This document shows positions 1,305 through 58,712 of a stretch of 64,000 nt of DNA, piece after piece. Position 1 is the first letter of the stretch. Every line of letters starts with the position of its first letter. The stretch comes from Burkholderiales bacterium (GTDB taxonomy: Bacteria > Pseudomonadota > Gammaproteobacteria > Burkholderiales > JACQAP01). The position numbers and the translations under genes are program-made. The stretch is from assembly GCA_035548375.1 (NCBI GenBank), contig DASZTG010000080.1, positions 81,185 through 145,184 of the forward strand, in the 5' to 3' direction. The notes under the pieces were generated by a model. It had not been told where the DNA came from, did no database searches, and saw only the letters and a program-made list of their open reading frames with translations.

Positions 1305-1754
1305 ATGCTGGATGCGCTGAAGACCTTGTTCTCCGAACTTGCCGGCGGCGACGCGAAGCAGTCGATCCCGCAAGCACGGCAGTTGCAGCTTGCCGTGGCC
1401 AGCCTGTTGCACGAGATGATGCGGGTGGACCTGGAGAAGAAACCGGAAGAAGCCCGCACCGCCGTCACGGCCCTGGTCAGGCTGTTTGCGCTGGATGAAC
1501 GCGAAGCGCAATCGCTGCTGGATGAAGCCGGCGCGCAGCGACTGACTTCCTACTTCGAGCCGGTCTCCACGATCAAGGCCGTGCTGTCGCAGGAACAACG
1601 CATAGCCCTCGTCGAGAGCCTGTGGCGCATCGCGTTCGCAGACGAGAAACTCGATGTCTACGAAGACCAGTTCGTGCGCAAGATCGCGGACCTGCTTTAC
1701 GTCTCCAATACGGACAGCATGCTGGCAAGGCAGCGCGCCAGGGGTGAGGGGTAG
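1305..1754 (+). CDS. TerB-like (tellurite-resistance TerB / DjlA N-domain family) protein
   Basis: 149-aa ORF with an ATG start 4 nt after the GST stop. The helical sequence ...IALVESLWRIAFADEKLDVYEDQFVRKIADLLYVS resembles the TerB family. Confidence 0.65.
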   Translation: MLDALKTLFSELAGGDAKQSIPQARQLQLAVASLLHEMMRVDLEKKPEEARTAVTALVRLFALDEREAQSLLDEAGAQRLTSYFEPVSTIKAVLSQEQRIALVESLWRIAFADEKLDVYEDQFVRKIADLLYVSNTDSMLARQRARGEG

Positions 1755-1880
1755 AGCGGGAAGGGTTGAAGGGAGAAGGGTGAAGGGTAAAGAACTGTCC
1801 CAATACTCAAGCTGGACCCTCCTGTTTTACCCTTCCCCTTTTAACCCTTCTCTCTTCCCTCTTCACCCTTCCCTTCTTAC
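1741..1880. repeat. GTGA/GGGAAGG-unit inverted-repeat element filling the convergent gap between TerB and the protease
   Basis: G-rich arm about 1742-1792 (GGGTGAGGGGTAGAGCGGGAAGGGTTGAAGGGAGAAGGGTGAAGGGTAAAG). Complementary C-rich arm about 1826-1879 (TTTACCCTTCCCCTTTTAACCCTTCTCTCTTCCCTCTTCACCCTTCCCTTCTTA). The arms overlap both stop codons. Confidence 0.7.
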
Positions 1881-4405
1881 GGCACCTTTCCCAGTTCCGC
1901 GCGCAAGTCGCGAAGGTGGGCGAGCGTTTCCGTGTCCCTGGTGCGACCGATCGCGGATTCGAGCTTGGCGTAGAGATGCGCAACACCGGAGCGCAACGAC
2001 GACCGGAATTCGCTCGGCCGGCCGCGTTCGCGGCGATATTCCTTCGCGACATCGGCGAGCGGCGAAGCGGCATCGCGCGATCCGAACCGACCTTGCGAGA
2101 CGGCATGGACCGAGCCGTCTTCCAGCAATTTCTGCGCGTCTATCGAATTGGCGCCGCCTTGCGGATCGTTCGTGGCACCCGTTGCGACCAGCAGCAAGGT
2201 CACGTAGTTGCGTTGCAACTCGCGCCGGTACAGGTCGATCACAGGTTTCTTCGCCTCCAGTTCGCTGAACAGCCCGTTGTTCAAATCGGTCAGCATGTCC
2301 ATGCCACTATAAGGCCTGCCGTCCTGGCGCAGTTGCCGTGCCTCCGCCATGCGCTGGAATACGCCGGGGTCGATGATCTGGCGCATCAGCTGCACGTTGG
2401 CGCCCTGCAAGGCGTCTGCGCCGCCGGAAGGACCGATGCGCATGAGGACTTCCTTGTCGAGCAGCGCCTGCGGGGTGGTCCAGGCCTTTTCCACGAGAAA
2501 CTTCACCGCGGCGCGCTGGCGCGCAGGCGGCACCGGATCGAACGGCGCCTTGCCGCGTCCCGCCTGGTAGCGCGTTTCCTCCACGCCGCCGACGATTTTC
2601 GCCACGGCCGCGAGCTCGCGATAGCGCTGCACCATCAGCGATTGATACATTTCGCGCAGGCGAGAATAGTTGCCGCCCATCTTCGTCGTGGCGGGAATCA
2701 GCAACGGCATCACGCGATCGATGTTCTTCAGCCCGAGTCCCGCGGCCTCGATGGGATCGCCGCCGACGACGTTGGTATTCACCTTGGGATCGATGGTCGC
2801 GTAGTCGTCCTCGCCGCCGAAGCGCAGCATCGGGTCGTTCACCTGTTTCGCGGCCAGTTCATCCAGATGCGGCCACTCGTCATCGCAGCTCATGCCGTTG
2901 GAGAACTGCCGGTAGCCCCACTCGATGGCGAAATAATCGTAGGGCCCGAATTTCGGCAGCAGCGCCGCGCCGTCGCCTGGCTGCGCCACATAGTTCAATC
3001 GCGCGTAGTCCATGATCGAGGCCGACGTGCCCCACTTTTTCGTCCATGCCGGATCGCGAAGCTGGGCAACCGTATAGGCCGAGTGCCCCTTGAAGTTGTG
3101 GCGCAATCCCAGCGCGTGGCCGATTTCGTGCGATACCACGTAGCGCAGCATGTCGCCGATGATTTCATCCGGCAGCGGCAGCTTCTGCGCCCTGGGGTCG
3201 AGCGGCGAAACCTGCGTGAAGTACCAGGTCTCCACCAGGCGCAGCACGTCGTGCCAGAAAATCGCGTGCGAGGAGATGACTTCGCCGCTGCGCGGGTCCA
3301 CGACAGCCGGCCCCATCGCGTTCTGGCGCCCGCTGGGCGTCCAGCGAATCACGTTGAATCGCACGTCCTCCGGATCCCAGTTCGGATCTTCCTCGGGGCC
3401 CGGCGCGTCCCGCGTCTGGATGGCGTTGGAGAATCCGGCCTTCTCGAACACCTTCTGCCAATCCTCGACGCCGGCCTTGAGATAAGGACGCCACTTCTCC
3501 GGGACTTCGTCGCTGATGTAGAAGAGTATGGGCTTCACGGGGTCGGAAACCTCGGCGTCCGGATTTTTCTTCTCCAGGCGATAACGCTGGATGAACGCGC
3601 GGCGGACCTTGCCGTGGTCATTGGTGCCGTAGTCATCGAAAGGCACCGAGAAATAGCCGACGCGATCGTCGGCATAGCGCGGGTCCATCGGCTCCTCGGG
3701 CAGCAGCAGCAGGCTCGAATGGAAGATGAATCCCAGCGCGGCGGGCACGCGCTCCGATTCGTCGTCCACCTGCTTCCTGAGCTCCGTTGCCGAAGGCACC
3801 CAGGTCTGGTGGAAACGGATGTCGATGTTTTGCGGGAACGCCTTGACGCTCTCGATGAACGAGCGCTTCGGGTCGATGGCGTTCATGCGGAAGTACTGCA
3901 TGAACTCGAGCGCGAATCCGTCCGGCACTTCGCTGACGAACAGGCTGGTGATGTCGATGACCGGCGCCTTGTTCTCGCCTTCCATGATGATGTCGAAGGT
4001 CTTGATCACCGTGCGCAGCGACGCCGATTCCACGCCGCGCTGCAACTGCGACATGTTCTGCGCCCACATTTCATAGCGCACGTTCTCGAGATAGAGCTTG
4101 TTGCCGCGACGCACCCAGCGGATCACGCGGTTGTCCACCACCGAGCCGGGCGCGACGAAATCGCTGCCGGTCGACAGCGCCGCGAATTCGATGTTGACCA
4201 GCATGTCCCGGTTCAACAGCTTCTCCGGGATCTCGAACATGACGTGGTCGCAGATCACGTGGACCTTGAACATGCCGGTCAAGGTTTCGACCTTCTGGTC
4301 CATGCCGGCGGGACAGGAAGCCACCATCGCGGAAGTCATTGCGCGAGCCGGCATGATGGCCGTCGACGCAAATAGTAAAGTCGCAATCAGGAAGAGCTTT
4401 TTCAT
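1877..4405 (-). CDS. secreted zinc-dependent metalloprotease (HEIGHALGLRHNF zincin; large DUF4953/DUF5117-like type)
   Basis: ORF 1877..4591. The internal ATG (complement of 4403-4405) gives the signal peptide MKKLFLIATLLFASTAIMPARA. HExxH motif VVSHEIGHALGLRHNFKGHS. 842 aa. Confidence 0.85.
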   Translation of the reverse strand: MKKLFLIATLLFASTAIMPARAMTSAMVASCPAGMDQKVETLTGMFKVHVICDHVMFEIPEKLLNRDMLVNIEFAALSTGSDFVAPGSVVDNRVIRWVRRGNKLYLENVRYEMWAQNMSQLQRGVESASLRTVIKTFDIIMEGENKAPVIDITSLFVSEVPDGFALEFMQYFRMNAIDPKRSFIESVKAFPQNIDIRFHQTWVPSATELRKQVDDESERVPAALGFIFHSSLLLLPEEPMDPRYADDRVGYFSVPFDDYGTNDHGKVRRAFIQRYRLEKKNPDAEVSDPVKPILFYISDEVPEKWRPYLKAGVEDWQKVFEKAGFSNAIQTRDAPGPEEDPNWDPEDVRFNVIRWTPSGRQNAMGPAVVDPRSGEVISSHAIFWHDVLRLVETWYFTQVSPLDPRAQKLPLPDEIIGDMLRYVVSHEIGHALGLRHNFKGHSAYTVAQLRDPAWTKKWGTSASIMDYARLNYVAQPGDGAALLPKFGPYDYFAIEWGYRQFSNGMSCDDEWPHLDELAAKQVNDPMLRFGGEDDYATIDPKVNTNVVGGDPIEAAGLGLKNIDRVMPLLIPATTKMGGNYSRLREMYQSLMVQRYRELAAVAKIVGGVEETRYQAGRGKAPFDPVPPARQRAAVKFLVEKAWTTPQALLDKEVLMRIGPSGGADALQGANVQLMRQIIDPGVFQRMAEARQLRQDGRPYSGMDMLTDLNNGLFSELEAKKPVIDLYRRELQRNYVTLLLVATGATNDPQGGANSIDAQKLLEDGSVHAVSQGRFGSRDAASPLADVAKEYRRERGRPSEFRSSLRSGVAHLYAKLESAIGRTRDTETLAHLRDLRAELGKVP

Positions 4406-4651
4406 ATGAAGTATCCCGCCGGTCGCGTCAGCGGCACGCACTGGCCGTTTCGTCGCTTGCCGACTGTGACGCCGGAAGCGCCAGTTTAACCCGCCAGCCG
4501 CGGTTTTCGAGCATGCGCCCGGCTGCGAATCCACATGTCCGACCGGGGTATACGCCTGCACCCTGCCTGTGGATGCGCGGCGGGCATGCAAGCGACCATC
4601 GGCCGGGCTGGCCGCAGCGGCATCGAGGGGTAAGTCAGGGAAGCTCAGGCG

Positions 4652-5119: not shown

Positions 5120-5175
5120 TGCGCCTCCTTCGAGCGTTTCCCCTGACAGACTACATCAGTTGCCTGTTCACCCGT

Positions 5176-5595
5176 TCAATAGTCGCAACGCGTGCGCCAT
5201 GCATTCACGTTGACCCGGTGCGCGTCGTGGACGGCCTCGAGGTACAGGTTCTGGATCTGGTAGGCCTGCCGCTCGGCCGCGAACCAGCGCACGCAGGGCG
5301 ACGGGATCTTCTCGAAAGTGCCGCTCACGCGCTGGGCATAGTGAACCAGCTCGTGCAACAGGATGGACCGCGCGAATTCGTCTTTTTCTAGGTCGAGCGC
5401 CTCATCGATGTAGATCCCATCCTCGGCGTTATAGAACGCTTCCGCCGCGCAGCTGCCATGGCAGAAACGCTCGCGAACTTCGGCGAGCGGAGCCTGGTGA
5501 ATCTCGGGAAGCGTACCCGGCACGGCATATCCCGTCAGCGAATGCACGGACGCCAGCAGTTCAAATGCCAGGGCGGACAGTGAAAACGAGTCCAT
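5176..5595 (-). CDS. small HExxH (minimal zincin-like) protein, paralog B
   Basis: ORF 5176..5658. The ATG (complement of 5593-5595) is preceded by AGGAGC and gives MDSFSLSALAFELL.... HELVH is encoded at 5341-5355. The protein aligns with paralog A along its whole length. Confidence 0.6.
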   Translation of the reverse strand: MDSFSLSALAFELLASVHSLTGYAVPGTLPEIHQAPLAEVRERFCHGSCAAEAFYNAEDGIYIDEALDLEKDEFARSILLHELVHYAQRVSGTFEKIPSPCVRWFAAERQAYQIQNLYLEAVHDAHRVNVNAWRTRCDY

Positions 5596-7201: not shown

Positions 7202-7852
7202 ATGAAACAGGATCCGCGTTTTCCGAACCTGTTCATCCTGGATCACCCGCTGATCCAGCACAAGCTCTCGCACATGCGGGACAAGACCACGTCCACGCGC
7301 ACCTTTCGCGAACTGTTGCGCGAGATTTCGCTGCTGATGGGCTATGAAGTCACGCGCATCCTGCCGCTGACCACGCGCACCATCGAGACGCCGATGGCGA
7401 AGATGGACGCACCGGTCATCGCCGGCAAGAAACTCGCGATCGTGCCCGTGCTGCGCGCGGGCATCGGCATGGCGGATGGACTGCAGGAACTCATTCCATC
7501 CGCGCGCACCGGGCATATCGGGCTTTACCGTGACGACAGCCACCGCCCCGTGGAATACCTGGTACGGCTGCCGGAGGTCGAGGGTCGAATGTTCATCCTG
7601 TGCGACCCGATGATAGGCACCGGCTATTCGGCCGCGCATGCGGTGCAGGTGCTGAAGGTTCGCGGCGTGCAGGCGAAGGACATTTTCTTCCTGGCGCTCG
7701 TCGCCTCGCCGGAGGGTGTGGCCGTCTACCAGGAACAGCACCCCGACGTGCCGATGTACGTTGCCGCGCTGGACGATCACCTCGACGAAAACGCCTACAT
7801 CGTGCCGGGGTTGGGCGATGCGGGCGACAGGCTGTTCGGGACGAAGAACTAG
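7202..7852 (+). CDS. upp: uracil phosphoribosyltransferase
   Basis: ORF 7151..7852. From ATG 7202 it reads [31 protein letters not shown]... and ends ...[16 protein letters not shown], a typical Upp. The start could instead be 7172. Confidence 0.9.
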
Positions 7853-7853
7853 G

Positions 7854-7988
7854 AATGCCGTGACGACGTGACTGTCGTGACGGATGAATACGTGACTGCC
7901 GGAAAAGCCAAACTCCTGGGCTTTAGGTCTCGCTGGTGAGGTTTGCGACAGGCACGACAGTCACGTCGTCACGATAGTCACGGCATTT
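7854..7988. repeat. GTGAC-unit (about 9-nt period) inverted-repeat element between the convergent upp and cydB
   Basis: The left arm AATGCCGTGACGACGTGACTGTCGTGAC (7854-7881) is the reverse complement of the right arm GGCACGACAGTCACGTCGTCACGATAGTCACGGCATT (7951-7987), except for one extra 9-mer unit (TATCGTGAC) in the right arm. Confidence 0.85.
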
Positions 7989-8982
7989 ACTCCCCGTAGG
8001 TGAGGGACCTCGCCTTTCCCCAGAACACGCTGTACGAGAACACGGTGTAGCCGACGATCAGCGGCAACACGACGCAAGCACCGACGAAGACGAACATCAG
8101 CGATTCCCTCGCCGCCGCGGCCTGCCAGATCGTCATGCGGTCGACGACCAGCCACGGGAACAAGCTGTAAGCCAGGCCCGCGAAGGCAAATACGAAAATC
8201 CACACCGAGAGCACGAACGGCAGCCATTCCTTTTTCGAACGACCGGACTGCAATCGCTTCACGGAAAACAGGATTCCGGCAAATGCCGCGGCCGTGAACG
8301 AGGGCAGCGGCGAAAGCCACAACATGCGCGGCCAGCTGAACCACTTTTCCATCACGCCCGCACTGGCGAATGGCGTGGCAAGGCTGATGGCGGCCACACC
8401 GGCGCCCGTGACGAATACCGCGGCCTTGCTCCAGCGCAATGCGCGCACATGCAGGTCGCCCTCGGTCTTGATCGCGAGCCAGGTTGCGCCCAGCAGCGCG
8501 TAGCCGCCGGCAAGGCCCGCGCCGACGAGAAACTCGAAGGCTATGAATAAACCGCCTTCGTGGAACCCGGTGATTAGCCCGGCAAGCATCGCACCCTGCG
8601 CGACCGCCGTACCCAGCGATCCGACGAAGAACAGGTGGTTCCACATCGATTGATGCCAGCCCGAGGCCTTGACGCGGAATTCGAACGAGACGCCGCGCAG
8701 GATCAGCGCGATCAGCATCGCCGCCACTTCCAGGTAAAGCGCCGGCAGGATCACTCCATGCGCGTGCGGGAACGCGACCAAAAGAATTCCGACGCCGAGC
8801 ACGAGCCAGGTCTCGTTGGCATCCCAGAACGGGCCGATCGACGCGACCATCATGTCCTGCTCCTCGCGCGAAGCCAGCGGCAGCAGGATGCCCACTCCAA
8901 GGTCGAAGCCGTCGAGGATGACATAGGCCAGGACTGCCAGTCCCATGAGGCCCGTGAATATCAGCGGCAGGTCGAGTTCCAT
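7987..8982 (-). CDS. cydB: cytochrome bd-type quinol oxidase subunit II
   Basis: The internal ATG of ORF 7987..9282 gives MELDLPLIFTGLMGLAVLAYVILDGFDLGVGILLP...GPFWDANETWLV. The start overlaps the cydA stop (ATGA at 8981-8984). Confidence 0.9.
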   Translation of the reverse strand: MELDLPLIFTGLMGLAVLAYVILDGFDLGVGILLPLASREEQDMMVASIGPFWDANETWLVLGVGILLVAFPHAHGVILPALYLEVAAMLIALILRGVSFEFRVKASGWHQSMWNHLFFVGSLGTAVAQGAMLAGLITGFHEGGLFIAFEFLVGAGLAGGYALLGATWLAIKTEGDLHVRALRWSKAAVFVTGAGVAAISLATPFASAGVMEKWFSWPRMLWLSPLPSFTAAAFAGILFSVKRLQSGRSKKEWLPFVLSVWIFVFAFAGLAYSLFPWLVVDRMTIWQAAAARESLMFVFVGACVVLPLIVGYTVFSYSVFWGKARSLTYGE

Positions 8983-10334
8983 CAAAGCACCTGTTGCCCC
9001 ACTGCGCCGGGCAGCGGTTCCTCGCGCCCCTTGCCTTCCGCTTCCTTGCGCGCGAGCTGCGTGAGCACGACCATGTACGACACGAGCAGCAGCCCGTAGA
9101 CCAGCGCGTAGCCGACCAGCGTGCTCGCAATATAGGGGGCCGGTACTTTCGACGCAGTGTCGGCGGTCAGGATCAGTCCATAGACGATGTAGGGCTGGCG
9201 GCCGATCTCGGTCGTGAGCCAGCCCGCCAGCACGGCCACCCACCCGGAAAACGTCAGCGCGGCGAATCCGCGCAAGAGCCACGCCGGAAACTGTCGCTTG
9301 CGCCAGAGCAGGAAGCCGCCCAGCCAGGACGCGGCCAGCATCAGCAGCCCGACGCCGACCATGATGCGGAACGTCCAGAACACCTGCGCAACCGGCGGAT
9401 GCATGTCGCCGAATTCGGATAGTCCCTTCACTTCACCGTCGAGTTCATGCGTCAGGATCAGGCTCGCGAACTTGGGCACGGAAACCGCGAAGTCATTCGT
9501 GCGCGTTTCCTTGTTCGGCAGCGCGAACAGCATGAGCGGCGCGCCCTTTTCCGTTTCCCAGATGCCCTCGATGGCCGCAATCTTGGCGGGCTGGTGCTCC
9601 AGCGTGTTCAGCCCGTGCTGGTCGCCCACGAAGATCTGGATGGGCGTCAGCACCGCGGCAACGACGATTCCCAGCCGCAGCATGCGCCGGGCCGGCTCGA
9701 ACTTCGGATTGCGCAGCAATTGAAACGCCGAAATGCCCGCGACCAGGAAGGCCGCCGTGAGGCCGGAGGCGATCATCATATGCGCGAGCCGGTACGGAAA
9801 ACTCGGATTGAAAATCACCGCCATCCAGCTCGTTGCGTGCAACTGGCCGTCGATGATTTCGTAGCCCTGCGGCGTCTGCATCCAGGAGTTCAGCGCGAGG
9901 ATCCAGAACGCGGAAGCGGACGTACCTATCGCGACCAGCAGCGACGAGACGGTATGCAGCCATGCCGGCACGCGGTCGCGCCCGAACAGCATGACACCCA
10001 GGAAGGTCGCCTCCAGGAAGAACGCCGTGAGCACCTCATATCCGAGCAGCGGACCGGCGATGTTGCCTGCCTTGCTCATGAAGCCGGGCCAGTTCGTTCC
10101 GAACTGGAAGCTCATGGTGATGCCCGAGACGACGCCCAGCGCGAAGGACAGCGCGAAGACTTTCACCCACAGGCGATAGGCGGGCTTGCACCAGGGCACA
10201 TTCGCGAACTCGATGCGCACGCGCAGGTAGACGAGGATCCAGGCCAGCGCGATGGTGATGCTGGGAAACAGGATGTGAAAGCCGATGTTCAGGCCGAACT
10301 GCGCACGTGCAAGGATCAGCGGATCAGCGGACAT
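8982..10334 (-). CDS. cydA: cytochrome bd-type quinol oxidase subunit I (short, CioA-like length)
   Basis: The internal ATG (complement of 10332-10334) of ORF 8982..10898 gives MSADPLILARAQFGLNIGFHILFPSITIALAW.... 450 aa, a multi-TM CydA-like sequence. Confidence 0.9.
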   Translation of the reverse strand: MSADPLILARAQFGLNIGFHILFPSITIALAWILVYLRVRIEFANVPWCKPAYRLWVKVFALSFALGVVSGITMSFQFGTNWPGFMSKAGNIAGPLLGYEVLTAFFLEATFLGVMLFGRDRVPAWLHTVSSLLVAIGTSASAFWILALNSWMQTPQGYEIIDGQLHATSWMAVIFNPSFPYRLAHMMIASGLTAAFLVAGISAFQLLRNPKFEPARRMLRLGIVVAAVLTPIQIFVGDQHGLNTLEHQPAKIAAIEGIWETEKGAPLMLFALPNKETRTNDFAVSVPKFASLILTHELDGEVKGLSEFGDMHPPVAQVFWTFRIMVGVGLLMLAASWLGGFLLWRKRQFPAWLLRGFAALTFSGWVAVLAGWLTTEIGRQPYIVYGLILTADTASKVPAPYIASTLVGYALVYGLLLVSYMVVLTQLARKEAEGKGREEPLPGAVGQQVL

Positions 10335-10445
10335 GACGAAGTACGCATGCGATGTCCGCAGTGTACCGCCAATCGATGCGCCAGTCCGCGGTTTCGCGCG
10401 TGCCGAACGCTTGACTGTATGCATATATGTACGCACACTGGCTGG

Positions 10446-10784
10446 ATGCACAAACGCGCCGCCGGATCGGCCGCCGGCCGCAACGGCAAGGCTTCCACAG
10501 CAGGCAGGCCGCAGGCCCGCACGCGGCGCAAACCCCGCCTCGCGAAGAATCCGGCCTCCCCATCGCCCATCGACAAGACAGCCGTTCGCGGCAAGACGCG
10601 CCTGACGATGTACCTCGACATGGCCGTCGTCGAGCATTTCCGCTCGCGCGCGGGCGGCCGCGGCTACCAGACGCTGATCAATGAAGCCCTGCGACGCGCG
10701 ATCGAGCAGGAAAACCTGGAAAGCGTGCTGCGACGCGTGATCCGCGAAGAAGCCCGCCCCCATCCGGCGAAAGGCAAGTCTTGA
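10446..10784 (+). CDS. BrnA-like / DUF4415-like ribbon-helix-helix antitoxin-family protein (no toxin partner present)
   Basis: The in-frame ATG at 10446 within ORF 9447..10784 starts a basic N-terminal tail. It is followed by TRLTMYLDMAVVEHFRSRAGGRGYQTLINEALRRAI, matching the BrnA core pattern (hIRLD..Vh.WF+..G.GYQT.IN..LR). Confidence 0.6.
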   Translation: MHKRAAGSAAGRNGKASTAGRPQARTRRKPRLAKNPASPSPIDKTAVRGKTRLTMYLDMAVVEHFRSRAGGRGYQTLINEALRRAIEQENLESVLRRVIREEARPHPAKGKS

Positions 10785-12100: not shown

Positions 12101-12105
12101 AAACA

Positions 12106-12154
12106 GTGAGGAGTGAGGAGTGAGGAGTGAGGAGTGAGGAGTGAGGAGTGATTG
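12106..12154. repeat. tandem heptamer array, 6 perfect GTGAGGA units plus one degenerate (GTGATTG)
   Basis: Direct reading: perfect 7-nt period from 12106 to 12147, starting 6 nt after the GGDEF stop. No complementary TCCTCAC arm occurs nearby. Confidence 0.95.
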
Positions 12155-12317
12155 GATGCGTCGCGTCGAGGTGAGTTCGCCGTTGCCGTTAATCGATCAC
12201 TTCTTGACGCCGTACTTCGCCCGATAGTGCTGCCCCATCACCTTGCGGCTTTGGCGATTCAACTGCGAGGCGTGCCTGCCGGATGCGGCCGGGCGAGCGT
12301 GCGCCGGGGCAACTCGT

Positions 12318-13871
12318 TTATTGCGGCTGATTTTCAACCGGATCGCTCTTGAACGTCTCTCGCAGCGCAGTTTTGAGAACCTTGCCGTAGTTGTTCTTCG
12401 GCAATTCGGCCACGAAACGATAGCCCTTCGGCCGCTTGAATCGCGCGATGTGGTCCAGGCAAAGCGCATCCAGTTCCTTTTCCTGCACGCGCGCGCGCTC
12501 CCTCACCACCACGAAGGCGATGACTTCCTCGCCCCATTCCGGATGCGGGCGTCCCACGACGGAAACTTCGCTGACGGCCGGATGCCGCAGCAGGATTTCC
12601 TCGACCTCGCGCGGATAGATGTTCGAGCCGCCGCTGATGATCATGTCCTTGGAACGATCGCGCAGTGTCAGGAATCCGTCCCCGTCCATGGAGCCCACGT
12701 CGCCGGTATGCAGCCAGCCGTTGCGCAGGGTTTCGCGCGTCGCTTCCGGATTGCGCCAGTAGCCGCGCATGACCGTATCCCCGCGCACGAGGATCTCGCC
12801 GATCTCCCCCGGCGGGAGCTCGATGTCGTTGTCGTCGGCGACAATGACCTCGACCGGCGGTTGCGCCGTTCCCACGGAAGCCAGCCGGTCTTCGTGGCGT
12901 GGATGCCCGCTGTCGGCAAGGTGGAATTTCGACAGCGCGGTGATGGTCATCGGCGATTCGCCCTGGCCGTAGATCTGCGCGAAGCGCTGGCCCATCACCT
13001 CCAGCGCCGCCTTGATGTCCTGCACGTACATCGGGCCGCCGCCATAGACGATGGTCTTCAATCCATCCAGTGGCGGTGCGTGCTTGCGCGCGTGCGAGAC
13101 CAGCCTGTGCACCATGGTCGGCGCCGCGAACATGGCGACACCGCGCCAGCGTTCGCCCAGGCTGAATATCTCGGCGGGATCGAAATGGCCGCTCTCGGGG
13201 ATCACCTGGTTCGCGCCCGCCAGCACGTGCGGAAAGTTGTACATGCCGGAGCCATGCGACATCGGCGCCGCATGCAACACGCAATCCTCCGGAGCAATGT
13301 GGTCCACCGCCGCGAAGTAGGCCAGTGACATGCTCAGGATGTTCCGGTGCGTGATCATCACGCCCTTTGGCCGCCCCGTCGTGCCGCTGGTATAGAACAG
13401 CCAGGCGACGTCGTCCGGCTGCACCGCGGTCATCGAAGACGCCGCGTCCGTTTTTGCAAGCTCGGCGTAGTCGGTGGAAGGGACTTCGATCACGCGCTCG
13501 AGCACCGGCAGGTTGCCGCGCAGGGTTTCCAGCGACTGGGCGAGGTCCGTCGACGCGAAGCAGGCCTTGGACGTCGAATCTTTCAGGATGAACTCGAATT
13601 CCTTCGGATGCAGTTTCGCGTTCATCGGCACGACGACCAGGCCCGCATGCCAGGCCGCATAGAGGATTTCCAGATATTGCGGACAATTTCCCATCGCCAG
13701 CGCCACGCAATCTCCCGGCACCAGGCCCAGCGATTTGCGAAATGCCGCACCGAGGCGGGCCGCTCGCCCCGCGAAGTCGCGGTAATTCATCCACACGCCG
13801 CTGCCGACGGAAATGGCCGGACGATCGGGGAATGTGCGCGCGGCGCGCAGGAGAAAGTGGGCGATGTTCAT
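12318..13871 (-). CDS. AMP-dependent acyl-CoA synthetase/ligase
   Basis: 517 aa with an ATG start. AMP-binding signature FYTSGTTGRPKGVMITHRN and a C-terminal ...PKNNYGKVLK. Confidence 0.9.
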   Translation of the reverse strand: MNIAHFLLRAARTFPDRPAISVGSGVWMNYRDFAGRAARLGAAFRKSLGLVPGDCVALAMGNCPQYLEILYAAWHAGLVVVPMNAKLHPKEFEFILKDSTSKACFASTDLAQSLETLRGNLPVLERVIEVPSTDYAELAKTDAASSMTAVQPDDVAWLFYTSGTTGRPKGVMITHRNILSMSLAYFAAVDHIAPEDCVLHAAPMSHGSGMYNFPHVLAGANQVIPESGHFDPAEIFSLGERWRGVAMFAAPTMVHRLVSHARKHAPPLDGLKTIVYGGGPMYVQDIKAALEVMGQRFAQIYGQGESPMTITALSKFHLADSGHPRHEDRLASVGTAQPPVEVIVADDNDIELPPGEIGEILVRGDTVMRGYWRNPEATRETLRNGWLHTGDVGSMDGDGFLTLRDRSKDMIISGGSNIYPREVEEILLRHPAVSEVSVVGRPHPEWGEEVIAFVVVRERARVQEKELDALCLDHIARFKRPKGYRFVAELPKNNYGKVLKTALRETFKSDPVENQPQ

Positions 13872-13873
13872 GA

Positions 13874-13940
13874 CGGGTGAAGCGTGAGGGGTGAGGCGTA
13901 GTTACTCCAATCTCCTCACGCCTCGTGCTTCATTCTTCAG
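13874..13940. repeat. short imperfect GTGAGG-unit inverted repeat between tandem minus-strand genes
   Basis: GGTGAAGCGTGAGGGGTGAGGCG (about 13876-13898) faces CTCCTCACGCCTCGTGCTTCA (about 13912-13932). The arms are imperfect and the boundaries approximate. Confidence 0.5.
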
Positions 13941-15568: not shown

Positions 15569-15660
15569 AAAAGCGTGAGGGGTGAGGAGTTAGGGGTGAA
15601 ACCGAAACGCCTCGCGCTTGCCCCTCGCCCCTAACCCCTCACTCCTCACCCCTCACTTTT
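15569..15660. repeat. GTGAGGG/GTGAGGA-unit inverted-repeat element between the SRPBCC gene and the SDR gene
   Basis: The left arm AAAAGCGTGAGGGGTGAGGAGTTAGGGGTGAAACC pairs with the right arm GCCCCTCGCCCCTAACCCCTCACTCCTCACCCCTCACTTTT. The right arm carries one extra 7-nt unit. Confidence 0.85.
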
Positions 15661-18330: not shown

Positions 18331-18690
18331 ATGAATAACACGGAACAGGTAGAACGCTGGGCGGACATCGCCCGCACGATTTTCCCGCAGGGCGCGCAGA
18401 TCACCCATCCCGCGGCGGGGGAATCGGTATGGCTTCGCGTGCGATGGAAGGTCGGCACCGACCCCAAGCGCCCGCAGAAACCGGCGAAGGGCGTGAACAT
18501 CTATTTCACGCGCGAATTCTGCAAGGCATACGAAAGTCTGGAAGCGTCGCGCCAGTCGGTCTGGGACGACAAGGTCAAGGAATTGCTCGTCGGTCGCTTC
18601 GCGACCTTCAATCCGGACCACAATGCGCCGCACGGCGCGCCGATGCCGGCGGAGTCCTGGTTCGTCACGCCCGGACTGGTTCGGTCGTGA
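18331..18690 (+). CDS. hypothetical protein
   Basis: ORF 18328..18690. The first codon is TTG and an ATG follows at 18331. No motif recognised. The stop codon TGA lies inside the first unit of the downstream repeat. Confidence 0.45.
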   Translation: MNNTEQVERWADIARTIFPQGAQITHPAAGESVWLRVRWKVGTDPKRPQKPAKGVNIYFTREFCKAYESLEASRQSVWDDKVKELLVGRFATFNPDHNAPHGAPMPAESWFVTPGLVRS

Positions 18691-18784
18691 ATGCCGTGAA
18701 TGTCGTGAATATCGGAAGAGCGACGCGAAGGCTTCAGGCAGTTTCGGAATTCACGGCACTCACGTAGTCACGACATTCACGGAT
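18685..18784. repeat. CGTGAATNN-unit (9-nt period) inverted-repeat element between convergent genes
   Basis: The left arm CGTGAATGC CGTGAATGT CGTGAATAT (about 18686-18712) faces the right arm GAATTCACG GCACTCACG TAGTCACG ACATTCACG (about 18748-18782). Confidence 0.8.
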
Positions 18785-20362: not shown

Positions 20363-20535
20363 GTGACTTGAGTGACGAGTGACGAGTGACGAGTGACGAG
20401 TGACGAGTGACGAGTGACGAGTGACGAGTGACGAGTGACGACAGGGTTAGTCTTCGCTTTGGGTACGGGAGTTCAGGAAACCTCGCATTTCGCAGTTTAC
20501 TTGTCCCTTGTCACACGTCACTGGTCACTCGTCAC
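20363..20535. repeat. 10 perfect tandem GTGACGA heptamers plus a distal 4-unit complementary GTCACNN arm
   Basis: Perfect 7-nt period from 20372 to 20441, preceded by a degenerate GTGACTT. About 68 nt downstream, GTCAC recurs at 20510, 20517, 20524 and 20531, again with a 7-nt period and in inverted orientation. Confidence 0.95.
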
Positions 20536-20537
20536 GA

Positions 20538-21068
20538 TCAAACCCATCCCATCGCCCCGACGAACGCACCGGCGCCCACCAGCCACAGCAAGTGCAGGCG
20601 AGTGCGCCAGACGAGAATCGCCGCCGCGATGGTCAGCAGGATGTGATGCCAGCCTGGCGTTTGCGCATCCAGGATCCAGCCGGTTGCGAACAGCAGGCCG
20701 ATCACGATCGGGGCCATGCCCGCCTTGAAGGCGCGCACCGCACGCCATTCGCGGCGCGCGTGACCCCAGCGCGCGGCTGCAAGCGCGAGCGTGGTGGACG
20801 GCAGCATGATGCCGATCAACGTCGCCGCGGCACCCATGAGACCCGCGGCCTGGTAGCCCATGACCGCGACGAACAGCACGTTGGGCCCCGGCGAGGCCTG
20901 TGCGATGGCGATCGAGGCATTGAACTGCGCGTCGCTCAGCAATCCCATCTGGTTGACCATCACGCGGTGCATGTCCGGCGCGACGGTGATCGCGCCGCCG
21001 ATCGACAGCAGCGACAGCAGCAGGAAATGGCCGAACAACGCAATGAGTGTCGACATCGATGCGATCAT
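20538..21068 (-). CDS. chromate transporter, short-chain CHR family, C-type half
   Basis: The internal ATG (complement of 21066-21068) gives MIASMSTLIALFGHFLLLSLLSIGGAITVAPDMHR...GPNVLFVAVMGY. It overlaps the upstream stop (ATGA). Confidence 0.8.
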   Translation of the reverse strand: MIASMSTLIALFGHFLLLSLLSIGGAITVAPDMHRVMVNQMGLLSDAQFNASIAIAQASPGPNVLFVAVMGYQAAGLMGAAATLIGIMLPSTTLALAAARWGHARREWRAVRAFKAGMAPIVIGLLFATGWILDAQTPGWHHILLTIAAAILVWRTRLHLLWLVGAGAFVGAMGWV

Positions 21069-21649: not shown

Positions 21650-21707
21650 GGAAGGGTGACTGGCGGCGAAAAGTGACGAGGATACCGGCTTCGATTCCGG
21701 ACGCCCG

Positions 21708-36454: not shown

Positions 36455-36496
36455 GGGAGTCGACGGTTAACGGTGAACAGCGATCAGTGAGCGGCT

Positions 36497-36599
36497 AATG
36501 TGAATGGGGAAGGGAGAATGGTAAGTGCCCTGGAGCTCTAAAGCCTTTACCCTTCATGCATTCCCCCTTCTCCCTTCCCCATTCACGCAATCCCTTCAC
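36497..36599. repeat. GTGAATG/GGGAAGG-unit inverted-repeat element between tandem minus-strand genes
   Basis: GTGAATGGGGAAGGGAGAA in the left arm is perfectly complementary to TTCTCCCTTCCCCATTCAC in the right arm. The loop contains GCTCTAAAGC, which is also found in the element at 58528-58712. Confidence 0.85.
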
Positions 36600-37246
36600 T
36601 GTTCTCCGCTTCTTCCTGCAACCAGCCGGCGAAGCTCCGCCACCTCTTCCCGCAGGGCCGCCACCTCGGCCCGCAGCACTGCAAGCGCGCCTTCCGGTTC
36701 GGCCGCCGGCGCGGCGCGCGGCGCGCCGGGATCGACCGGGCCATTGAGCAAATGCATCCAGCGATGCTCGCGCGCACCGGGCACTTTCGCCAGCCTTACC
36801 GCGAGCGGCCCGCTCGCGCGCTCGGCCATTTCGTCTAGATAGGCTTCCACGCTGGAAAGGTCCGCGAACTGGTACATGCGCTCGCACGCGGTGCGCAATT
36901 CACCCGGTGTCTGCGCGCCGCGCAGCATCAGCGTGACGAGCAGCGCGGTCGTGCCGGCGTCGGTGCCGAGCACCTGCGAAAGGTTATGCGCATAGCGCAC
37001 GACACGGCGCGATGCGCCCCAGCTTTGCGTGACGAATTTCCTGTCCCTCAAGCCGTCCAGGGCCGCCTGCACCTCGTCTTCCGCCACGTTCATGACCGGA
37101 TCGCGGCTGGTCTTCTGGTTGCACCCGGCGACGAGCGCGTTCAACGAAAGCGGATAGTAATCGGGCGTGGTGAGCTGCTTTTCGACCAGCACGCCGACGA
37201 CACGGATCTCGAGCGCGGACAGCACGGGCAAATTCGATTCGGACAT
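36596..37246 (-). CDS. yceH: YceH-family (DUF480) protein
   Basis: 216 aa. LSALEIRVVGVLVEKQLTTPDYYPLSLNALVAGCNQKTSRDPVM. Confidence 0.85.
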   Translation of the reverse strand: MSESNLPVLSALEIRVVGVLVEKQLTTPDYYPLSLNALVAGCNQKTSRDPVMNVAEDEVQAALDGLRDRKFVTQSWGASRRVVRYAHNLSQVLGTDAGTTALLVTLMLRGAQTPGELRTACERMYQFADLSSVEAYLDEMAERASGPLAVRLAKVPGAREHRWMHLLNGPVDPGAPRAAPAAEPEGALAVLRAEVAALREEVAELRRLVAGRSGEQ

Positions 37247-43011: not shown

Positions 43012-43045
43012 GGCAAACGAAAAACGGGCGCATGGCGCGCCCGTT
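43012..43045 (-). terminator. Rho-independent terminator downstream of lon
   Basis: The 8-bp GC-rich stem ACGGGCGC / GCGCCCGT (43024-43031 / 43037-43044) is followed on the minus strand by TTTTTCGTTT. It lies 17 nt after the lon stop. Confidence 0.7.
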
Positions 43046-48692: not shown

Positions 48693-48728
48693 AATAAAAA
48701 TGCGGCGACCGCCAGGCAGTCGCCGCAT
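48693..48728 (-). terminator. Rho-independent terminator downstream of the catalase-related gene
   Basis: Perfect 10-bp stem ATGCGGCGAC / GTCGCCGCAT (48700-48709 / 48719-48728) with a 9-nt loop, followed on the minus strand by TTTTTATT. Confidence 0.8.
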
Positions 48729-48770
48729 CGCGAAGTCTATCCGAATTATGGCTATTGCATGAATGTTCGC

Positions 48771-51838: not shown

Positions 51839-51922
51839 GAAGGGTGAAGGGTGAAGGGTGAAGGGTGAAGGGTGAAGGGTGAAGGGTGAAGGGTGAAGGG
51901 TGAAGGGTGAAGGGTGAAGGGC
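51839..51922. repeat. 12 tandem GAAGGGT heptamers (the last is GAAGGGC)
   Basis: Direct reading: perfect 7-nt period from 51839 to 51922, starting 6 nt after the oxygenase stop and ending about 150 nt upstream of the radical SAM start. No complementary arm occurs nearby. Confidence 0.95.
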
Positions 51923-54471: not shown

Positions 54472-54472
54472 C

Positions 54473-54620
54473 GGTGAAGAACGCGAAGAGGGAAGCGTGA
54501 GGCGCGATGAGTGAGGAGTGAGGAGGGCAAGACTTTACAACACGGGCGCAGCATACGGCTTTTGCCTGCCGGAGGGTGAGATTCCCCCCTCACGCCTCTC
54601 GCCTCGCCCCTTTCCCCTCA
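54473..54620. repeat. GTGAGG-unit imperfect inverted-repeat element between ylqF and the AsmA-family gene
   Basis: The left arm GGTGAAGAACGCGAAGAGGGAAGCGTGAGGCGCGATGAGTGAGGAGTGAGGAGGG faces the right arm CCCCCCTCACGCCTCTCGCCTCGCCCCTTTCCCCTCA. Boundaries are approximate. Confidence 0.6.
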
Positions 54621-54627
54621 ATGCAAT

Positions 54628-56603: not shown

Positions 56604-56630
56604 GGTCACAAGGCTACCTGTGCCCGCGTC
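56604..56630 (+). promoter_or_regulatory. second match to the ECF41-type promoter motif, directly upstream of the sigma factor gene
   Basis: GGTCACA (56604-56610), a 16-nt spacer, then CGTC (56627-56630). The consensus is TGTCACA-N16-CGTC. It ends 10 nt before the ATG at 56641. Confidence 0.4.
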
Positions 56631-56640
56631 TTCTGGGTAA

Positions 56641-57537
56641 ATGACCGCCATATTCGCAATGGACGACCACGCAACTGCTTTCGAGAAACACCGACCCCGG
56701 CTGTTCGGCGTCGCCTATCGCATGCTGGGCACGCGCGCCGACGCCGAAGACGTGCTGCAGGACGCCTGGCTGCGCTGGCATGAAGCCGACCTCGCTGCCA
56801 TCGCCTCGCCGGAGGCCTGGCTGGTAACGATCGTCACGCGCTTGTGCCTCGATCGCCTGCGGGCAACGAAGCAGGACCGGGAACGCTATGTGGGCCCCTG
56901 GCTGCCGGAACCGATCATCGTCGACCAGATGCCTTCGCCCGAACTGCGACTGGAGCTGGCCAATGAAGTGTCGGTCGCCTTCCTCGCCTTGCTCGAGCGC
57001 CTGGGCCCGGAAAAGCGCGCGGCCTTCCTGTTGCATGAAGTATTCGACTACGACTATCCGGAAATCGCGCGGATGCTCGGCAAATCCGAGCCGGCGCTGC
57101 GCCAGATGGTGCATCGCGCGCGCGAGGAAGTCCGCGATGGCCGGCCTAAATTTTCCGTGGCGGAAGAAGTCCGCGGGCGCCTGCTCGAGAAATTCCTCGC
57201 CGCGGCGTCGAGCGGCGACCGCAACGCCGTCATGGCGCTGCTGAGGGAAGACGCCGAATACATCTCGGACGGCGGCGGCAAGGTGTACGCCGCGCTGAGG
57301 GTCCTGCACGGCGCGGAACGCATCGGCAGGCTTTACTACTCGATCTCCCGCAGCTTTCCCGGCCTGACATGGCGCATCATCAAGGTCAACGGCGAGTTGG
57401 GCATGGCCAACATGATGGGCGACAAACTGCACTCCATCATCTCGTTCCAGTTCGACGGCGAGCGCATTGCCGGCATCTACTCCATGCGCAACCCGGACAA
57501 GCTCGCGGGCATTTTGCCAGGGAAGCTCGGCACCTGA
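56641..57537 (+). CDS. ECF sigma factor with a fused C-terminal SnoaL-like domain (ECF41 / SigJ-like)
   Basis: 298 aa. FEKHRPRLFGVAYRMLGTRADAEDVLQDAWLRW (region 2), AAFLLHEVFDYDYPEIARMLGKSEPALRQMVHRAR (region 4), plus an extension of about 110 aa. Confidence 0.85.
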   Translation: MTAIFAMDDHATAFEKHRPRLFGVAYRMLGTRADAEDVLQDAWLRWHEADLAAIASPEAWLVTIVTRLCLDRLRATKQDRERYVGPWLPEPIIVDQMPSPELRLELANEVSVAFLALLERLGPEKRAAFLLHEVFDYDYPEIARMLGKSEPALRQMVHRAREEVRDGRPKFSVAEEVRGRLLEKFLAAASSGDRNAVMALLREDAEYISDGGGKVYAALRVLHGAERIGRLYYSISRSFPGLTWRIIKVNGELGMANMMGDKLHSIISFQFDGERIAGIYSMRNPDKLAGILPGKLGT

Positions 57538-57543
57538 CGCGCC

Positions 57544-57570
57544 TGTCACAACCGCGCCCCTCCATTCGTC
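57544..57570 (+). promoter_or_regulatory. ECF41-type target promoter upstream of the CMD-family gene
   Basis: Exact TGTCACA (57544-57550), a 16-nt spacer, then CGTC (57567-57570), about 50 nt upstream of the CMD ATG. It matches the published ECF41 motif TGTCACA-N16-CGTC. Confidence 0.65.
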
Positions 57571-57618
57571 TTGCAAGTTAACGGCGGCCCTACCGCCAGC
57601 AACCGAAAGGACGAAATC

Positions 57619-58092
57619 ATGGCAACCAAGCAGGCGCGTCTGCCCTATTGGGACCTGTCGCCCGAGGCCGTGAAGGCTTTGCGCAGCCTGAACCAACAAC
57701 TGGATCGCGCCGGCCTCGACCCGGCGATCGTCGACCTCGTGCGCCTGCGCGCCTCGCAGGTCAATGGCTGCGTCTATTGCATAGACATGCACACGCGAGA
57801 GGCGCTCGAGAACGGGGAAACCGAGGAACGCCTCGACGCGCTGGCCGGCTGGCACGATTCACCGATGTTCGACACCAGGGAAAGAGCCGCGCTCGCCTGG
57901 ACCGAATCGCTGACCCGCGTTGCCGAGACGAATGCGCCGGACGAGGATTTCGCGCTGGTATCGGCCCATTTTTCCCCAAAGGAAATTTCCGACCTGACCT
58001 TTGTCATCGCCATCATCAACGCCTGGACCCGCGTCGCGATCGGCTTCAGGCAGCCCGTTGTCAACCCCGTTCGCGCCACAGCAACCAGATAA
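57619..58092 (+). CDS. carboxymuconolactone decarboxylase (AhpD-like) family protein
   Basis: The internal ATG at 57619 follows AAAGGA. ...VRLRASQVNGCVYCIDMHT (CxxC AhpD-like motif). 157 aa. Confidence 0.85.
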   Translation: MATKQARLPYWDLSPEAVKALRSLNQQLDRAGLDPAIVDLVRLRASQVNGCVYCIDMHTREALENGETEERLDALAGWHDSPMFDTRERAALAWTESLTRVAETNAPDEDFALVSAHFSPKEISDLTFVIAIINAWTRVAIGFRQPVVNPVRATATR

Positions 58093-58109
58093 CATCAACA
58101 GGAGAAAAC

Positions 58110-58523
58110 ATGATTCGCATCGCACTAACCGCCGTCGCGTTTGCGGCCTTCGTCGCCGGCCCGGCCTTCGCCGATGAGCACAAGCATGACGACGGCCAGA
58201 AGATCACGCCCAAGCTCGTGCAGGACCTGGCCGACATTCCCGGCAAGGAAGCGATGGTGCTCACCGTCGAGGTGGCACCCGGCTATGTCTCGAAGGCACA
58301 CCGCCACGAGGCGCATACCTTCGTCTACATGCTGGAAGGCGAAGTCGACATGCAGGTCGCCGGCGGGCCGCTGGCGCACCTCAAGCCGGGAGACACTTTC
58401 TATGAAAACCCCAAGGACGTGCACACGGTCGCGACCAACACCAGCAAGACCAGCCCGGCGAAGTTCCTGGTGGTGTTCGTAAAGAACAAAGGCGCGCCGC
58501 CGGTGTTGCCAGCGGCGCAATAG
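58110..58523 (+). CDS. secreted cupin-domain protein
   Basis: ATG 58110 follows GGAGAA. Signal peptide MIRIALTAVAFAAFVAGPAFA. ...KAHRHEAHTFVYMLEGEV...PGDTFYENPKDVH. Confidence 0.7.
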   Translation: MIRIALTAVAFAAFVAGPAFADEHKHDDGQKITPKLVQDLADIPGKEAMVLTVEVAPGYVSKAHRHEAHTFVYMLEGEVDMQVAGGPLAHLKPGDTFYENPKDVHTVATNTSKTSPAKFLVVFVKNKGAPPVLPAAQ

Positions 58524-58527
58524 CGCC

Positions 58528-58712
58528 GCGAAAGGCGGGAAGGGATAAGAGATAAGGGGGAAGGGAGAAGGGTAAAGGCTCTAAAGCTTTAAGGCCCTAA
58601 AGCATTGACCCTTCCCTCTTCCCCCTTCCCCCTTCTCCCTTCCCCCTGCTCCCTTCCCTTTTCACTCATTCACCCATTCACCCATTCACTCATTCACTCT
58701 TCACTCCTTCAC
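58528..58712. repeat. largest GGGAAGG / CATTCAC-unit inverted-repeat element, between the convergent cupin and dehalogenase genes
   Basis: The G-rich arm (about 58530-58578) faces a C-rich arm of about 100 nt (58608-58711). The C-rich arm ends in TCACTCAT TCACCCAT TCACCCAT TCACTCAT TCACTCT TCACTCCT TCAC. The loop carries GCTCTAAAGC. Confidence 0.85.

Follow-up and report, generated by a model that had tools for sequence, protein, structure and literature searches.

Along a 64-kb stretch of DNA from a Burkholderiales bacterium (assembly GCA_035548375.1, contig DASZTG010000080.1, positions 81,185 to 145,184; hereafter the window), eleven gene junctions are occupied by tandem arrays of purine-rich units of 7-9 nucleotides (nt) arranged head-to-tail. 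At nine of these loci a complementary pyrimidine-rich array stands opposite the first, giving imperfect hairpins of 65-185 nt. The host genome has a GC content of 64%, and the window is ordinary chromosome in which the genes flanking the elements are housekeeping or metabolic. A self-trained gene caller placed 59 genes in it, leaving an intergenic share of 8.9%, and a Pfam scan covered 20 of the approximately 59 encoded proteins. All counts given for the host genome are confined to this window.

Every locus named in a first-pass annotation of this DNA was inspected by eye, tandem arrays were called with Tandem Repeats Finder (TRF) and inverted repeats were searched for, and the eleven loci with their nine mirrored arrangements were confirmed. 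TRF returned period 7 at nine loci (1740-1874, 12105-12151, 13871-13899, 15575-15656, 20370-20535, 36561-36584, 51839-51921, 54497-54620 and 58539-58658) and period 8-9 at 7859-7982, 18686-18710 and 58661-58712. Three arrays are perfect, with a match of 100%, namely (AGTGAGG) x6.7 at 12105-12151, (GAGTGAC) x10.3 at 20370-20441 and (GAAGGGT) x11.9 at 51839-51921; the first and the last of these are the two single-arm loci. The longest inverted repeats of the window coincide with the element loci. Stems of 20-60 bp are made of tandem units, predicted hairpin energies of the nine mirrored loci range from -36 to -85 kcal/mol, and all nine hairpins are purine-first, both strands reading 5'-purine arm, loop, pyrimidine arm-3'.

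The majority of units are built around a GTGA or TGA core, and most contain TGA, TAG or TAA. The description of a GTGA core in all arms thus holds for most units, but the GAAGGG-type loci have few such cores or lack them, and the hairpin at 58528 contains none at all. Instead of the proposed separate flavour for each locus, we found about four groups of units, each common to several loci (GTGAGGR, GAAGGGN, (C)GTGACGN and CGTGAATNN/TGAGTGAA), and the three GAAGGG-type loci align with a mean column identity of 67%. A pattern of five GTGA-N3 units with up to two mismatches had 22 matches in the window compared to 0.00 in 100 shuffles. Gaps bearing a hairpin had fold z-scores of -3.8 to -13.8, with the gap at 54472-54627 as the exception (z = -0.6), while gaps with neither an element nor a classical terminator ranged from -2.2 to +2.1. 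Because of these 22 matches and the strong folding of the gaps, the arrays are not attributable to chance; arrays and hairpins are a real, fast-evolving feature. A suspected remnant at 21654-21681 turned out to be indistinguishable from background (period-7 score 0.39, z -1.5).

All eleven elements lie within the intergenic 8.9% of the window, as the first-pass annotation had stated, and together they account for 23% of this intergenic sequence, at a density of about one element per 6 kb in this one window. Five occupy convergent and six occupy tandem junctions, each of which holds a gene 3' end. Among gaps of at least 40 nt, an element was present in 11 of 28 non-divergent and in none of 10 divergent ones (Fisher p = 0.018). 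At nearly every adjacent gene end the stem or array begins 0-5 nt from the stop codon or contains it, and at 1752-1754, 13937-13939, 18688-18690, 36596-36598 and 58709-58711 the stop codon is the repeat unit's own TGA or TAG. The precise filling of gaps and the overlap with stop codons at convergent as well as tandem junctions were therefore confirmed. Five tandem-junction hairpins have a stem that extends from the upstream stop codon to 0-28 nt before the next start codon so that a promoter would not fit in between. Within 45 nt past a gene, stops close a mean of 2.27 reading frames if an element follows and 0.71 in other genes, and all three frames were closed within this distance in 5 of 15 element-followed genes versus 0 of 42 others. 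The genes next to elements fall in unrelated functional classes.

At convergent junctions, the first hairpin (1741-1880, outer pair 1742-1874, gap fold z -7.3) consists of GGGGTGA and GAAGGGN heptamers and separates a TerB-like gene, which takes its final TAG (1752-1754) from the second unit, from a met-zincin gene with its stop codon (1877-1879) 2 nt off the stem. The hairpin between upp (stop 7850-7852) and cydB (stop 7987-7989) is made of 8-9-nt CGTGACGA / CGTGACTGT units (7854-7988, outer pair 7854-7987), and the one beside an aldolase gene (18685-18784, outer pair 18685-18782) of 9-nt CGTGAATNN units followed by ATTTTT on the plus strand. A hairpin of GGGAAGG and GAAGGGA heptamers (58528-58660, outer pair 58528-58649, z -10.5) begins 4 nt past the TAG of a cupin gene. 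The same junction holds a separate single-arm array of 8-nt TGAGTGAA units (x6.6, 58661-58712, minus strand), the first unit of which provides with its TGA (58709-58711) the stop codon of a HAD-hydrolase gene. The loops of two GAAGGG-type hairpins (36520-36550 and 58576-58606) have GCTCTAAAGC in common; with n=2, chance and common descent are not separable for this likeness.

Among the hairpins between co-oriented genes, that of GTGAAGC and GTGAGGG units at 13872-13940 (outer pair 13872-13938, z -4.8) fills the entire gap between the PhyH and AMP-ligase genes, both on the minus strand; the first unit coincides with the PhyH stop TGA (13937-13939), and at its other end the stem directly adjoins the AMP-ligase start codon (13869-13871). 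The hairpin at 15569-15660 (stem and outer pair 15575-15656, z -13.8) lies between two plus-strand genes and contains GTGAGGG, GTGAGGA and GTTAGGG units, the variants of which are mirrored in order from arm to arm; with an A-tract upstream and TTTT downstream it looks like a bidirectional intrinsic terminator. The remaining three are located between two minus-strand genes each. One (20363-20537, outer pair 20386-20535, z -8.0) has a left arm of ten perfect GTGACGA units and a right arm of about five degenerate ones, and reaches from 2 nt past the upstream stop codon (20538-20540) to 10 nt short of the next start codon. Another, of GGGGAAG and GGAGAAT units (36482-36604, also its outer pair), overlaps the final 9 nt of a DUF480 gene, the stop TGA of which (36596-36598) lies inside a GTGAAGG unit. 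The last is an imperfect hairpin of GTGAGGA and GTGAGGC units (54473-54627, stem and outer pair 54483-54624) that extends from 3 nt past the stop codon of an AsmA-family gene to 1 nt before the start codon of a GTPase gene. Both single-arm loci are on the plus strand, the (AGTGAGG)n array 4 nt past the TAA of a GGDEF gene and the (GAAGGGT)n array 5 nt past the TAG of an oxygenase gene; the latter is one of the three loci with a G-quadruplex (G4)-type motif. A small open reading frame (ORF) downstream of the AMP-ligase gene (12196-12320, minus strand) turns the junction of the 12105 array convergent. Its basic C-terminus ...SQLNRQSRKVMGQHYRAKYGVKK* also occurs in the related contig L127 at about 5350-5483, where no gene was called. 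A BrnA-type antitoxin gene (about 10285-10784, Pfam tags) just upstream of the GGDEF gene is kept in all syntenic relatives, and a tRNA/tmRNA scan of the window found none.

Syntenic contigs of related uncultured strains were retrieved via upp homologues and a metagenome scan for the upp C-terminus. The upp/cydB hairpin is found in eight lineages (the window, L176, L128, L139/L250, L001, L148, L133 and L127), and despite differing unit, length or arrangement its arms are internally complementary in every one of them, in agreement with the earlier suggestion that the arms evolve in concert. The units are CGTGACGA / CGTGACTGT in the window, CGTGACGR x4 in L176, CGTGACGNN in L128 and L139, GGTGAAC in L001 (200 nt) and L148 (110 nt), GTGAYTR in L133, and GTGACAA / GTAACGA in L127; the differing units include CGTGACGN, GGTGAAC, GTGAYTR and GTGACAA. 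A hairpin of GTGA-core units was present at this junction in 9 of the 11 sequences (window included) with a upp 3' end at least 80% identical to that of the window, and in 1 of 108 more distant sequences. Most relatives have a cydB gene ending in ...GGTGAGTGA or ...GGGGAGTGA (Gly-Glu-stop), as seen in the window (7987-7989), L001, L128, L133 and L176. These last codons make up the right arm's outermost GTGA units and pair with sequence just past the upp stop codon, which hints that units may be seeded from gene-end sequence. In L152, pyrimidines prevail on the upp sense strand of a long (CCCTTCG)n array that lies about 95-200 nt past the upp stop codon and is presumably the sense array of the convergent neighbour.

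A similar picture emerged at other junctions. Between the AMP-ligase and PhyH genes, GTGAGGG units in the window correspond to CTAGGGG / TTAGGGG in L127, and at the cyclase/SDR junction GTGAGGG in the window corresponds to GTGAAGG / GTGAATGA in L127, while the 9-nt CGTGAATNN hairpin beside the aldolase gene is common to the window and L001. Position is thus conserved, with varying length and kept type, at upp/cydB in 8 lineages and at three further junctions. The (AGTGAGG)n array after the GGDEF gene has no counterpart at the orthologous L127 site. For the copy number of (GAAGGGT)12, a metagenome scan for the oxygenase gene end found no orthologues. Contigs of the array-rich clade carry 0.9-3.4 period-7 loci per 10 kb, and none was found in 20 kb of the slightly more distant L130 and L131. 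Since about four flavours coexist and the 12105 array is without counterpart in L127, the elements are not copies of one element; they are a class of locally generated arrays and not, as originally described, a family of dispersed copies. An assembly artefact as their source was excluded, as the same elements occur in independent assemblies from different samples. The L127 contig folds back from 9652-9815 onward (SDR on the plus strand, then SDR and cyclase on the minus strand), probably as an assembly artefact at a hairpin; the turn lies at a REP-like palindrome of CCCTCTCCCC / GGGGAGAGGG blocks. These L127 palindromes are pyrimidine-first, opposite to the repeat hairpins, and similar blocks occur in L143 and L226.

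The contigs L001-L006 are more than 99.9% identical, yet two hairpins differ among them. At the GGDEF/SDR junction, L002 has a canonical terminator with a 16-bp stem and a TTCC loop, GGGCCGAGGTTCACCC-TTCC-GGGTGAACCTCGGCCC, followed by TGTTTT. In L001 and L004 this outer terminator stem surrounds a long inner inverted repeat that includes the period-7 stretch GCGGGCC x2.1. The second polymorphic hairpin is present in full, with AGGCGCC units, in L002, L004 and L005, and as the right arm alone in L001. When L001 is compared to L002, L004 and L005, the two polymorphic hairpins flank a segment of about 1.3 kb (L001 15139-16515) with a divergence of 1-2.5%, which suggests a recombination tract with its ends at the hairpins.

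Beyond these relatives, a cross-phylum sample was drawn with one genome per species and five GTGA-N3 units as the pattern, and at least 120 stretches were listed as matches. Gene calls at these loci come from a crude self-trained model, which was used instead of a test of long-ORF orientation, as GTGA arrays stop any ORF that enters them and thereby confound such a test. The matches listed show GTGA heptamer arrays in almost all phyla of the sample, among them Planctomycetota, Verrucomicrobiota, Acidobacteriota, Chloroflexota, Cyanobacteria, Bacteroidota, Bacillota, Gemmatimonadota, several Burkholderiales and others. The same architecture is directly readable in other Burkholderiales metagenome-assembled genomes and in the AT-rich genome of Petroclostridium. 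Period 7 prevailed in all fetched DNA, with 345 arrays of at least three copies compared to 18 of period 6, 31 of period 8 and 26 of period 9.

The 113 listed arrays with enough flank had a partner array downstream for 26 arms (about 24 distinct hairpins) and upstream for one. Because an inverted repeat reads alike on both strands, this places the purine-rich GTGA arm 5' on either strand. Arrays without GTGA followed the same rule (20 purine-first versus 5 pyrimidine-first, p = 0.004), and the polarity is also seen at tandem junctions and in arrays without stop triplets. Single arrays at tandem junctions were antisense in 19 and sense in 21 of the listed cases; the sense arrays start a median of 4-5 nt past the stop codon, and the antisense arrays are separated from both genes by more than 100 nt. 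Divergent junctions were rare, with six among the matches listed. GTGA in 73 of 219 arrays where the pattern did not force it is confounded by partner arms and genome choice and was not relied on.

Comparison with known element classes gave largely negative results. Rfam returned no matches to the elements at gathering thresholds. Those at E<=1 were all far below gathering scores and represented eukaryotic hairpin-type families, almost all of them miRNA precursors, together with two snoRNAs and one 3'-UTR element. The full boxC/TMECO pattern CCCTCNCCC-N3-6-GGGNGAGGG-N3-GGGNGAGGG had no match, and neither did its part GGGNGAGGG-N3-GGGNGAGGG, even with two mismatches. The element loci share no similarity beyond the repeat unit, no conserved 20-40-nt palindrome of the kind found in REP, BIME or REPIN elements is present, and neither terminal inverted repeats nor a target-site duplication are visible at any locus. 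At the GGDEF 3' site, where the window is occupied and L127 is empty, there is no duplication and the two versions do not align. That the first-pass annotation recognised no REP, BIME or MITE family in them is therefore supported. Several other candidates were considered and rejected: CsrA-binding or Shine-Dalgarno-like arrays fit only the GGA/GGAG-rich flavours, DNA uptake sequences require one fixed sequence, and in KOPS or Chi sites the inverted arrangement would cancel polarity. Integron attC sites were set aside in view of housekeeping flanks in conserved synteny, the occurrence at convergent junctions and the lack of visible core sites.

Like intrinsic terminators, including the bidirectional ones of convergent genes, the elements are stem-loops directly past genes; two loci have T-tracts, and the L002 orthologue is a textbook terminator, the stem of which is developed into a long repeat-built hairpin in L001. 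Stem-loops mark transcript 3' ends in Rho-independent as well as Rho-dependent termination (PMC13613805). The elements differ from intrinsic terminators in their stems of tandem units, which far exceed the usual 5-15 bp, in the rarity of T-tracts, and in that five hairpins stand inside probable operons directly before a start codon. T-tracts follow the stem only at 15575-15656 (both directions) and 18685-18782 (plus direction); the first-pass statement that the elements lack U-tracts was wrong for these two hairpins and right for the other seven. The window contains two canonical intrinsic terminators with a GC-rich stem and TTTTT (43012-43045 and 48699-48729), both serving minus-strand genes and both noted previously. 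Apart from terminator 48699-48729, consensus terminator and promoter scans remained at or below shuffle level.

The nearest described relatives are the heptameric intergenic repeats reported by Rehm et al. (2015, PMC4692102), with GGGAATC in Xanthomonas and GGGGA(C/T)T in Nostoc, so the class that the first-pass annotation had taken for undescribed is already characterised. These repeats consist of 2 to 26 head-to-tail 7-nt units. They number about 185 per genome (186 in the case of Xanthomonas), 89-93% of them intergenic, at a mean of 28 nt from the 5' neighbouring gene and under-represented between divergent genes, and they include 70-75 convergent inverted pairs per genome with stem-loop potential. 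Most (83%) are found at the same position in a sister species, where length varies and the single or inverted type is kept. Compared to controls, the repeats coincide more frequently with transcript starts or stops. Those of Xanthomonas form G4 structures in vitro, and the repeats were neither tied to mobile elements nor assigned any function or regulatory role (PMC4692102).

The elements of the window are like the Xanthomonas-Nostoc repeats in their 7-nt tandem units, intergenic bias, avoidance of divergent gaps and stop proximity, as well as in convergent pairing and a kept position with variable length and preserved type. Xanthomonas, in contrast, uses a single consensus unit throughout its genome, which contains a G3 tract and occurs preferentially in fours, as expected under G-quadruplex logic, whereas here at least four flavours coexist, units change at orthologous sites, 8-9-nt units occur, and the core is mostly GTGA or a stop triplet. 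The G4 motif (G3-N1-7 x4) is present in 3 of 11 loci, all GAAGGG-type, and the density, extrapolated from one window, is several-fold above 186 per genome. Since there is no single G3-tract consensus and the G4 motif is confined to these three loci, we regard the elements as a variant of the Xanthomonas-Nostoc kind and not as members of the GGGNATC family. The Nostoc repeats of that study are presumably the cyanobacterial STRR repeats.

Other systems share fewer properties. The survey of Mrazek et al. (2007), as cited in PMC4692102, found heptamer simple sequence repeats over-represented especially in large GC-rich prokaryotic genomes and suggested polymerase slippage. The dominance of period 7 and the GC-rich host agree with our observations, and slippage is the suggested cause in both cases, while, as far as the citing text conveys, that study is a statistical survey without hairpin arrangement, polarity or stop anchoring. 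PMC4692102 itself mentions tandemly repeated heptanucleotides in Calothrix. TAACTGA heptamer direct repeats in Beggiatoaceae, cyanobacteria and Bacteroidetes (MacGregor 2015, PMC4679880) are likewise intergenic tandem heptamers with stop triplets across distant phyla, but they stand just upstream of start codons, are inverted in 1 of 170 sets and have one fixed unit. REP, BIME and boxC elements, the last with the TMECO triplex motif in E. coli (Holder et al. 2015, PMC4666352), are likewise GC-rich imperfect palindromes of intergenic regions, in many cases flanked by co-transcribed or convergent genes, and the GGGNGAGGG blocks of boxC resemble GTGAGGG units. Their copies, however, have a consensus conserved across loci, which the present elements lack, and the boxC/REP-like palindromes in relatives are pyrimidine-first and thus of opposite polarity. 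In the open-access literature we found one detailed study of heptamer repeats, and no description of GTGA-core arrays, locus-specific units or a general purine-first rule. Intergenic heptamer repeats near stop codons, often as convergent pairs, are already known; unit heterogeneity, turnover at orthologous sites, independence from G-quadruplex potential, high density and the cross-phylum purine-first rule extend this knowledge.

We lean, with modest confidence, towards the view that the elements are microsatellite hairpins formed locally at gene 3' ends, that is, slippage arrays with arms kept complementary and acting as 3'-end stem-loops, and not copies of a mobile element. The arrays would grow and shrink by replication slippage with the heptamer as the favoured period, a process suggested by the dominance of period 7, by perfect arrays beside decayed partners and by lengths that differ with the same unit. 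One arm may expand alone, which could account for the ten perfect units at 20370-20441 opposite five decayed ones. What keeps the arms matched may be template switching within the palindrome (quasipalindrome correction), selection for pairing, or a combination of the two; E. coli genetics has established that quasipalindromes can be corrected by template switching. In the transcript the hairpin would most likely be a 3'-end stem-loop working in both directions, with transcription termination or protection from 3' exonucleases as its role where genes converge or operons end. Inside operons it would serve as an insulator or processing hairpin, a role proposed because the five tandem-junction stems run from stop to start without promoter room. 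Purine-first polarity would imply that at stem closure the RNA in the polymerase hybrid is pyrimidine-rich and the hybrid weak, as with a U-tract; pyrimidine-RNA:purine-DNA hybrids are the least stable class. The stops that the units place in other frames past the gene may be a by-product. A 3'-end stem-loop is favoured because in the L002/L001 pair the hairpin appears to grow out of a genuine terminator, because hairpins outnumber canonical terminators nine to two, and because the purine-first polarity would put pyrimidine-rich RNA in the transcription hybrid at stem closure.

Several observations weigh against this interpretation. Five hairpins lie directly before co-oriented start codons, where an efficient terminator would silence the gene, seven of the nine hairpins are without a T-tract, and the two single-arm loci as well as the array at 58661-58712 cannot form a hairpin. 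Selection on RNA structure, one of the explanations offered in the first-pass annotation, received no support: in 12 tandem-junction hairpins the antisense strand was more stable in 8, with sums of -695 kcal/mol for sense and -728 kcal/mol for antisense. The sense RNA folds no better, and therefore mismatches are not biased towards G.U pairs in mRNA. Slippage and template switching are both deduced from sequence patterns, and the hairpin differences between L001 and L002 may be recombined old alleles instead of recent mutations. The cross-phylum sample is non-random, as it comprises the first 120 matches to a pattern that itself forces GTGA.

A serious rival, and a distinct possibility, is that the elements are a tolerated mutational by-product without function, generated by slippage and palindrome-templated repair and purged by selection where harmful, in coding DNA and divergent promoter gaps, so that they would accumulate past stop codons. 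The purine-first, stop-rich orientation would then survive since a sense array extending into a gene end supplies a stop in any frame, in line with the 2.27 frames closed within 45 nt compared to 0.71 for other genes. The lack of a folding advantage of the sense strand, the existence of single-arm arrays and the unrelated functional classes of adjacent genes all agree with this explanation, as does the 12105 array, which is present in the window and absent from the close relative L127. The sister lineages L130 and L131, without period-7 arrays in 20 kb, presumably manage without them, and Rehm et al. likewise found no regulatory role (PMC4692102). It fits less well that hairpin and type persisted at upp/cydB through full turnover of the unit in eight lineages, which is easier to explain if selection maintains pairing. 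In L001/L002 the elements also take the place of a genuine terminator stem or lengthen it, and the purine-first polarity extends to tandem junctions and to arrays without stop triplets.

An effect on translation is an unlikely alternative. The arrays would act as fail-safe stop cassettes for all frames, and the tandem hairpins would bring stop and start codons close together for coupled re-initiation. Sense-strand units do carry TGA, TAG or TAA, with TAG replacing TGA at an orthologous L127 locus, the first unit often supplies the stop codon itself, three frames are closed within 45 nt in 5 of 15 genes compared to 0 of 42, and five tandem-junction stems run from the stop to 0-28 nt before the start. 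Stop triplets are, however, commonly expected in any T-containing purine-rich unit, and the 9-nt units at 18685 and 7854 hold TGA in one frame only. Several arrays of relatives (CACGGAGGA, AGGCGCC, GCGGGCC and GGAAAGG) and the Xanthomonas unit GGGAATC contain no stop triplet at all.

Action at the DNA level, through non-B structures (G-quadruplex, i-motif or triplex) or through arrays bound by a GTGA-recognising protein, for example in nucleoid organisation or replication-transcription conflicts, seems very improbable. The purine/pyrimidine asymmetry of the arms is the composition required for H-DNA or G4, the strand symmetry of folding fits a DNA-level feature, and G4 formation by the Xanthomonas repeats in vitro (PMC4692102) has its parallel in the GAAGGG-type loci matching G3-N1-7 x4. 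This motif is nevertheless restricted to 3 of 11 loci, units such as GTGACGA, CGTGAATNN and GGTGAAC lack G-tracts, the boxC/TMECO triplex pattern is not found in the window, and a sequence-specific binder is hard to square with units that change at orthologous sites. An identity as mobile elements of the REP/REPIN or MITE type, spread by RAYT or transposase, is largely refuted. The elements do lie between genes, form palindromes and reach about one per 6 kb, and the three GAAGGG-type loci can be aligned; but no consensus is shared beyond the unit, terminal inverted repeats and target-site duplications are lacking, the orthologous sites of close relatives are all occupied with diverged content instead of showing presence or absence of one sequence, and the REP-like CCCTCTCCC/GGGAGAGGG palindromes in relatives have the opposite, pyrimidine-first polarity.

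The favoured interpretation of locally formed microsatellite hairpins can be widened, although we consider this wider form rather doubtful. Purine-first hairpins would constitute a general, self-renewing and bidirectional 3'-end class in most phyla that has no U-tract and relies on a weak pyrimidine-RNA:purine-DNA hybrid instead, born at stop codons by heptamer slippage, and the repeats of Xanthomonas, Nostoc and Burkholderiales would be dialects of one mechanism.

No other long microsatellites are as strongly over-represented in large bacterial genomes as heptamers, according to the literature as cited. Hairpins of this kind may shift predicted gene stop codons and break or fold back metagenome assemblies. 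Their defining property is architecture and not sequence or G-quadruplex potential: a stop-anchored purine array and its mirrored complement, with the purine arm first. This architecture outlives complete unit turnover at orthologous sites and recurs with the same polarity in the sampled genomes of nearly every phylum. It offers a testable hypothesis of how transcript 3' ends may form without U-tracts, at hairpins that would be made and renewed without transposition.

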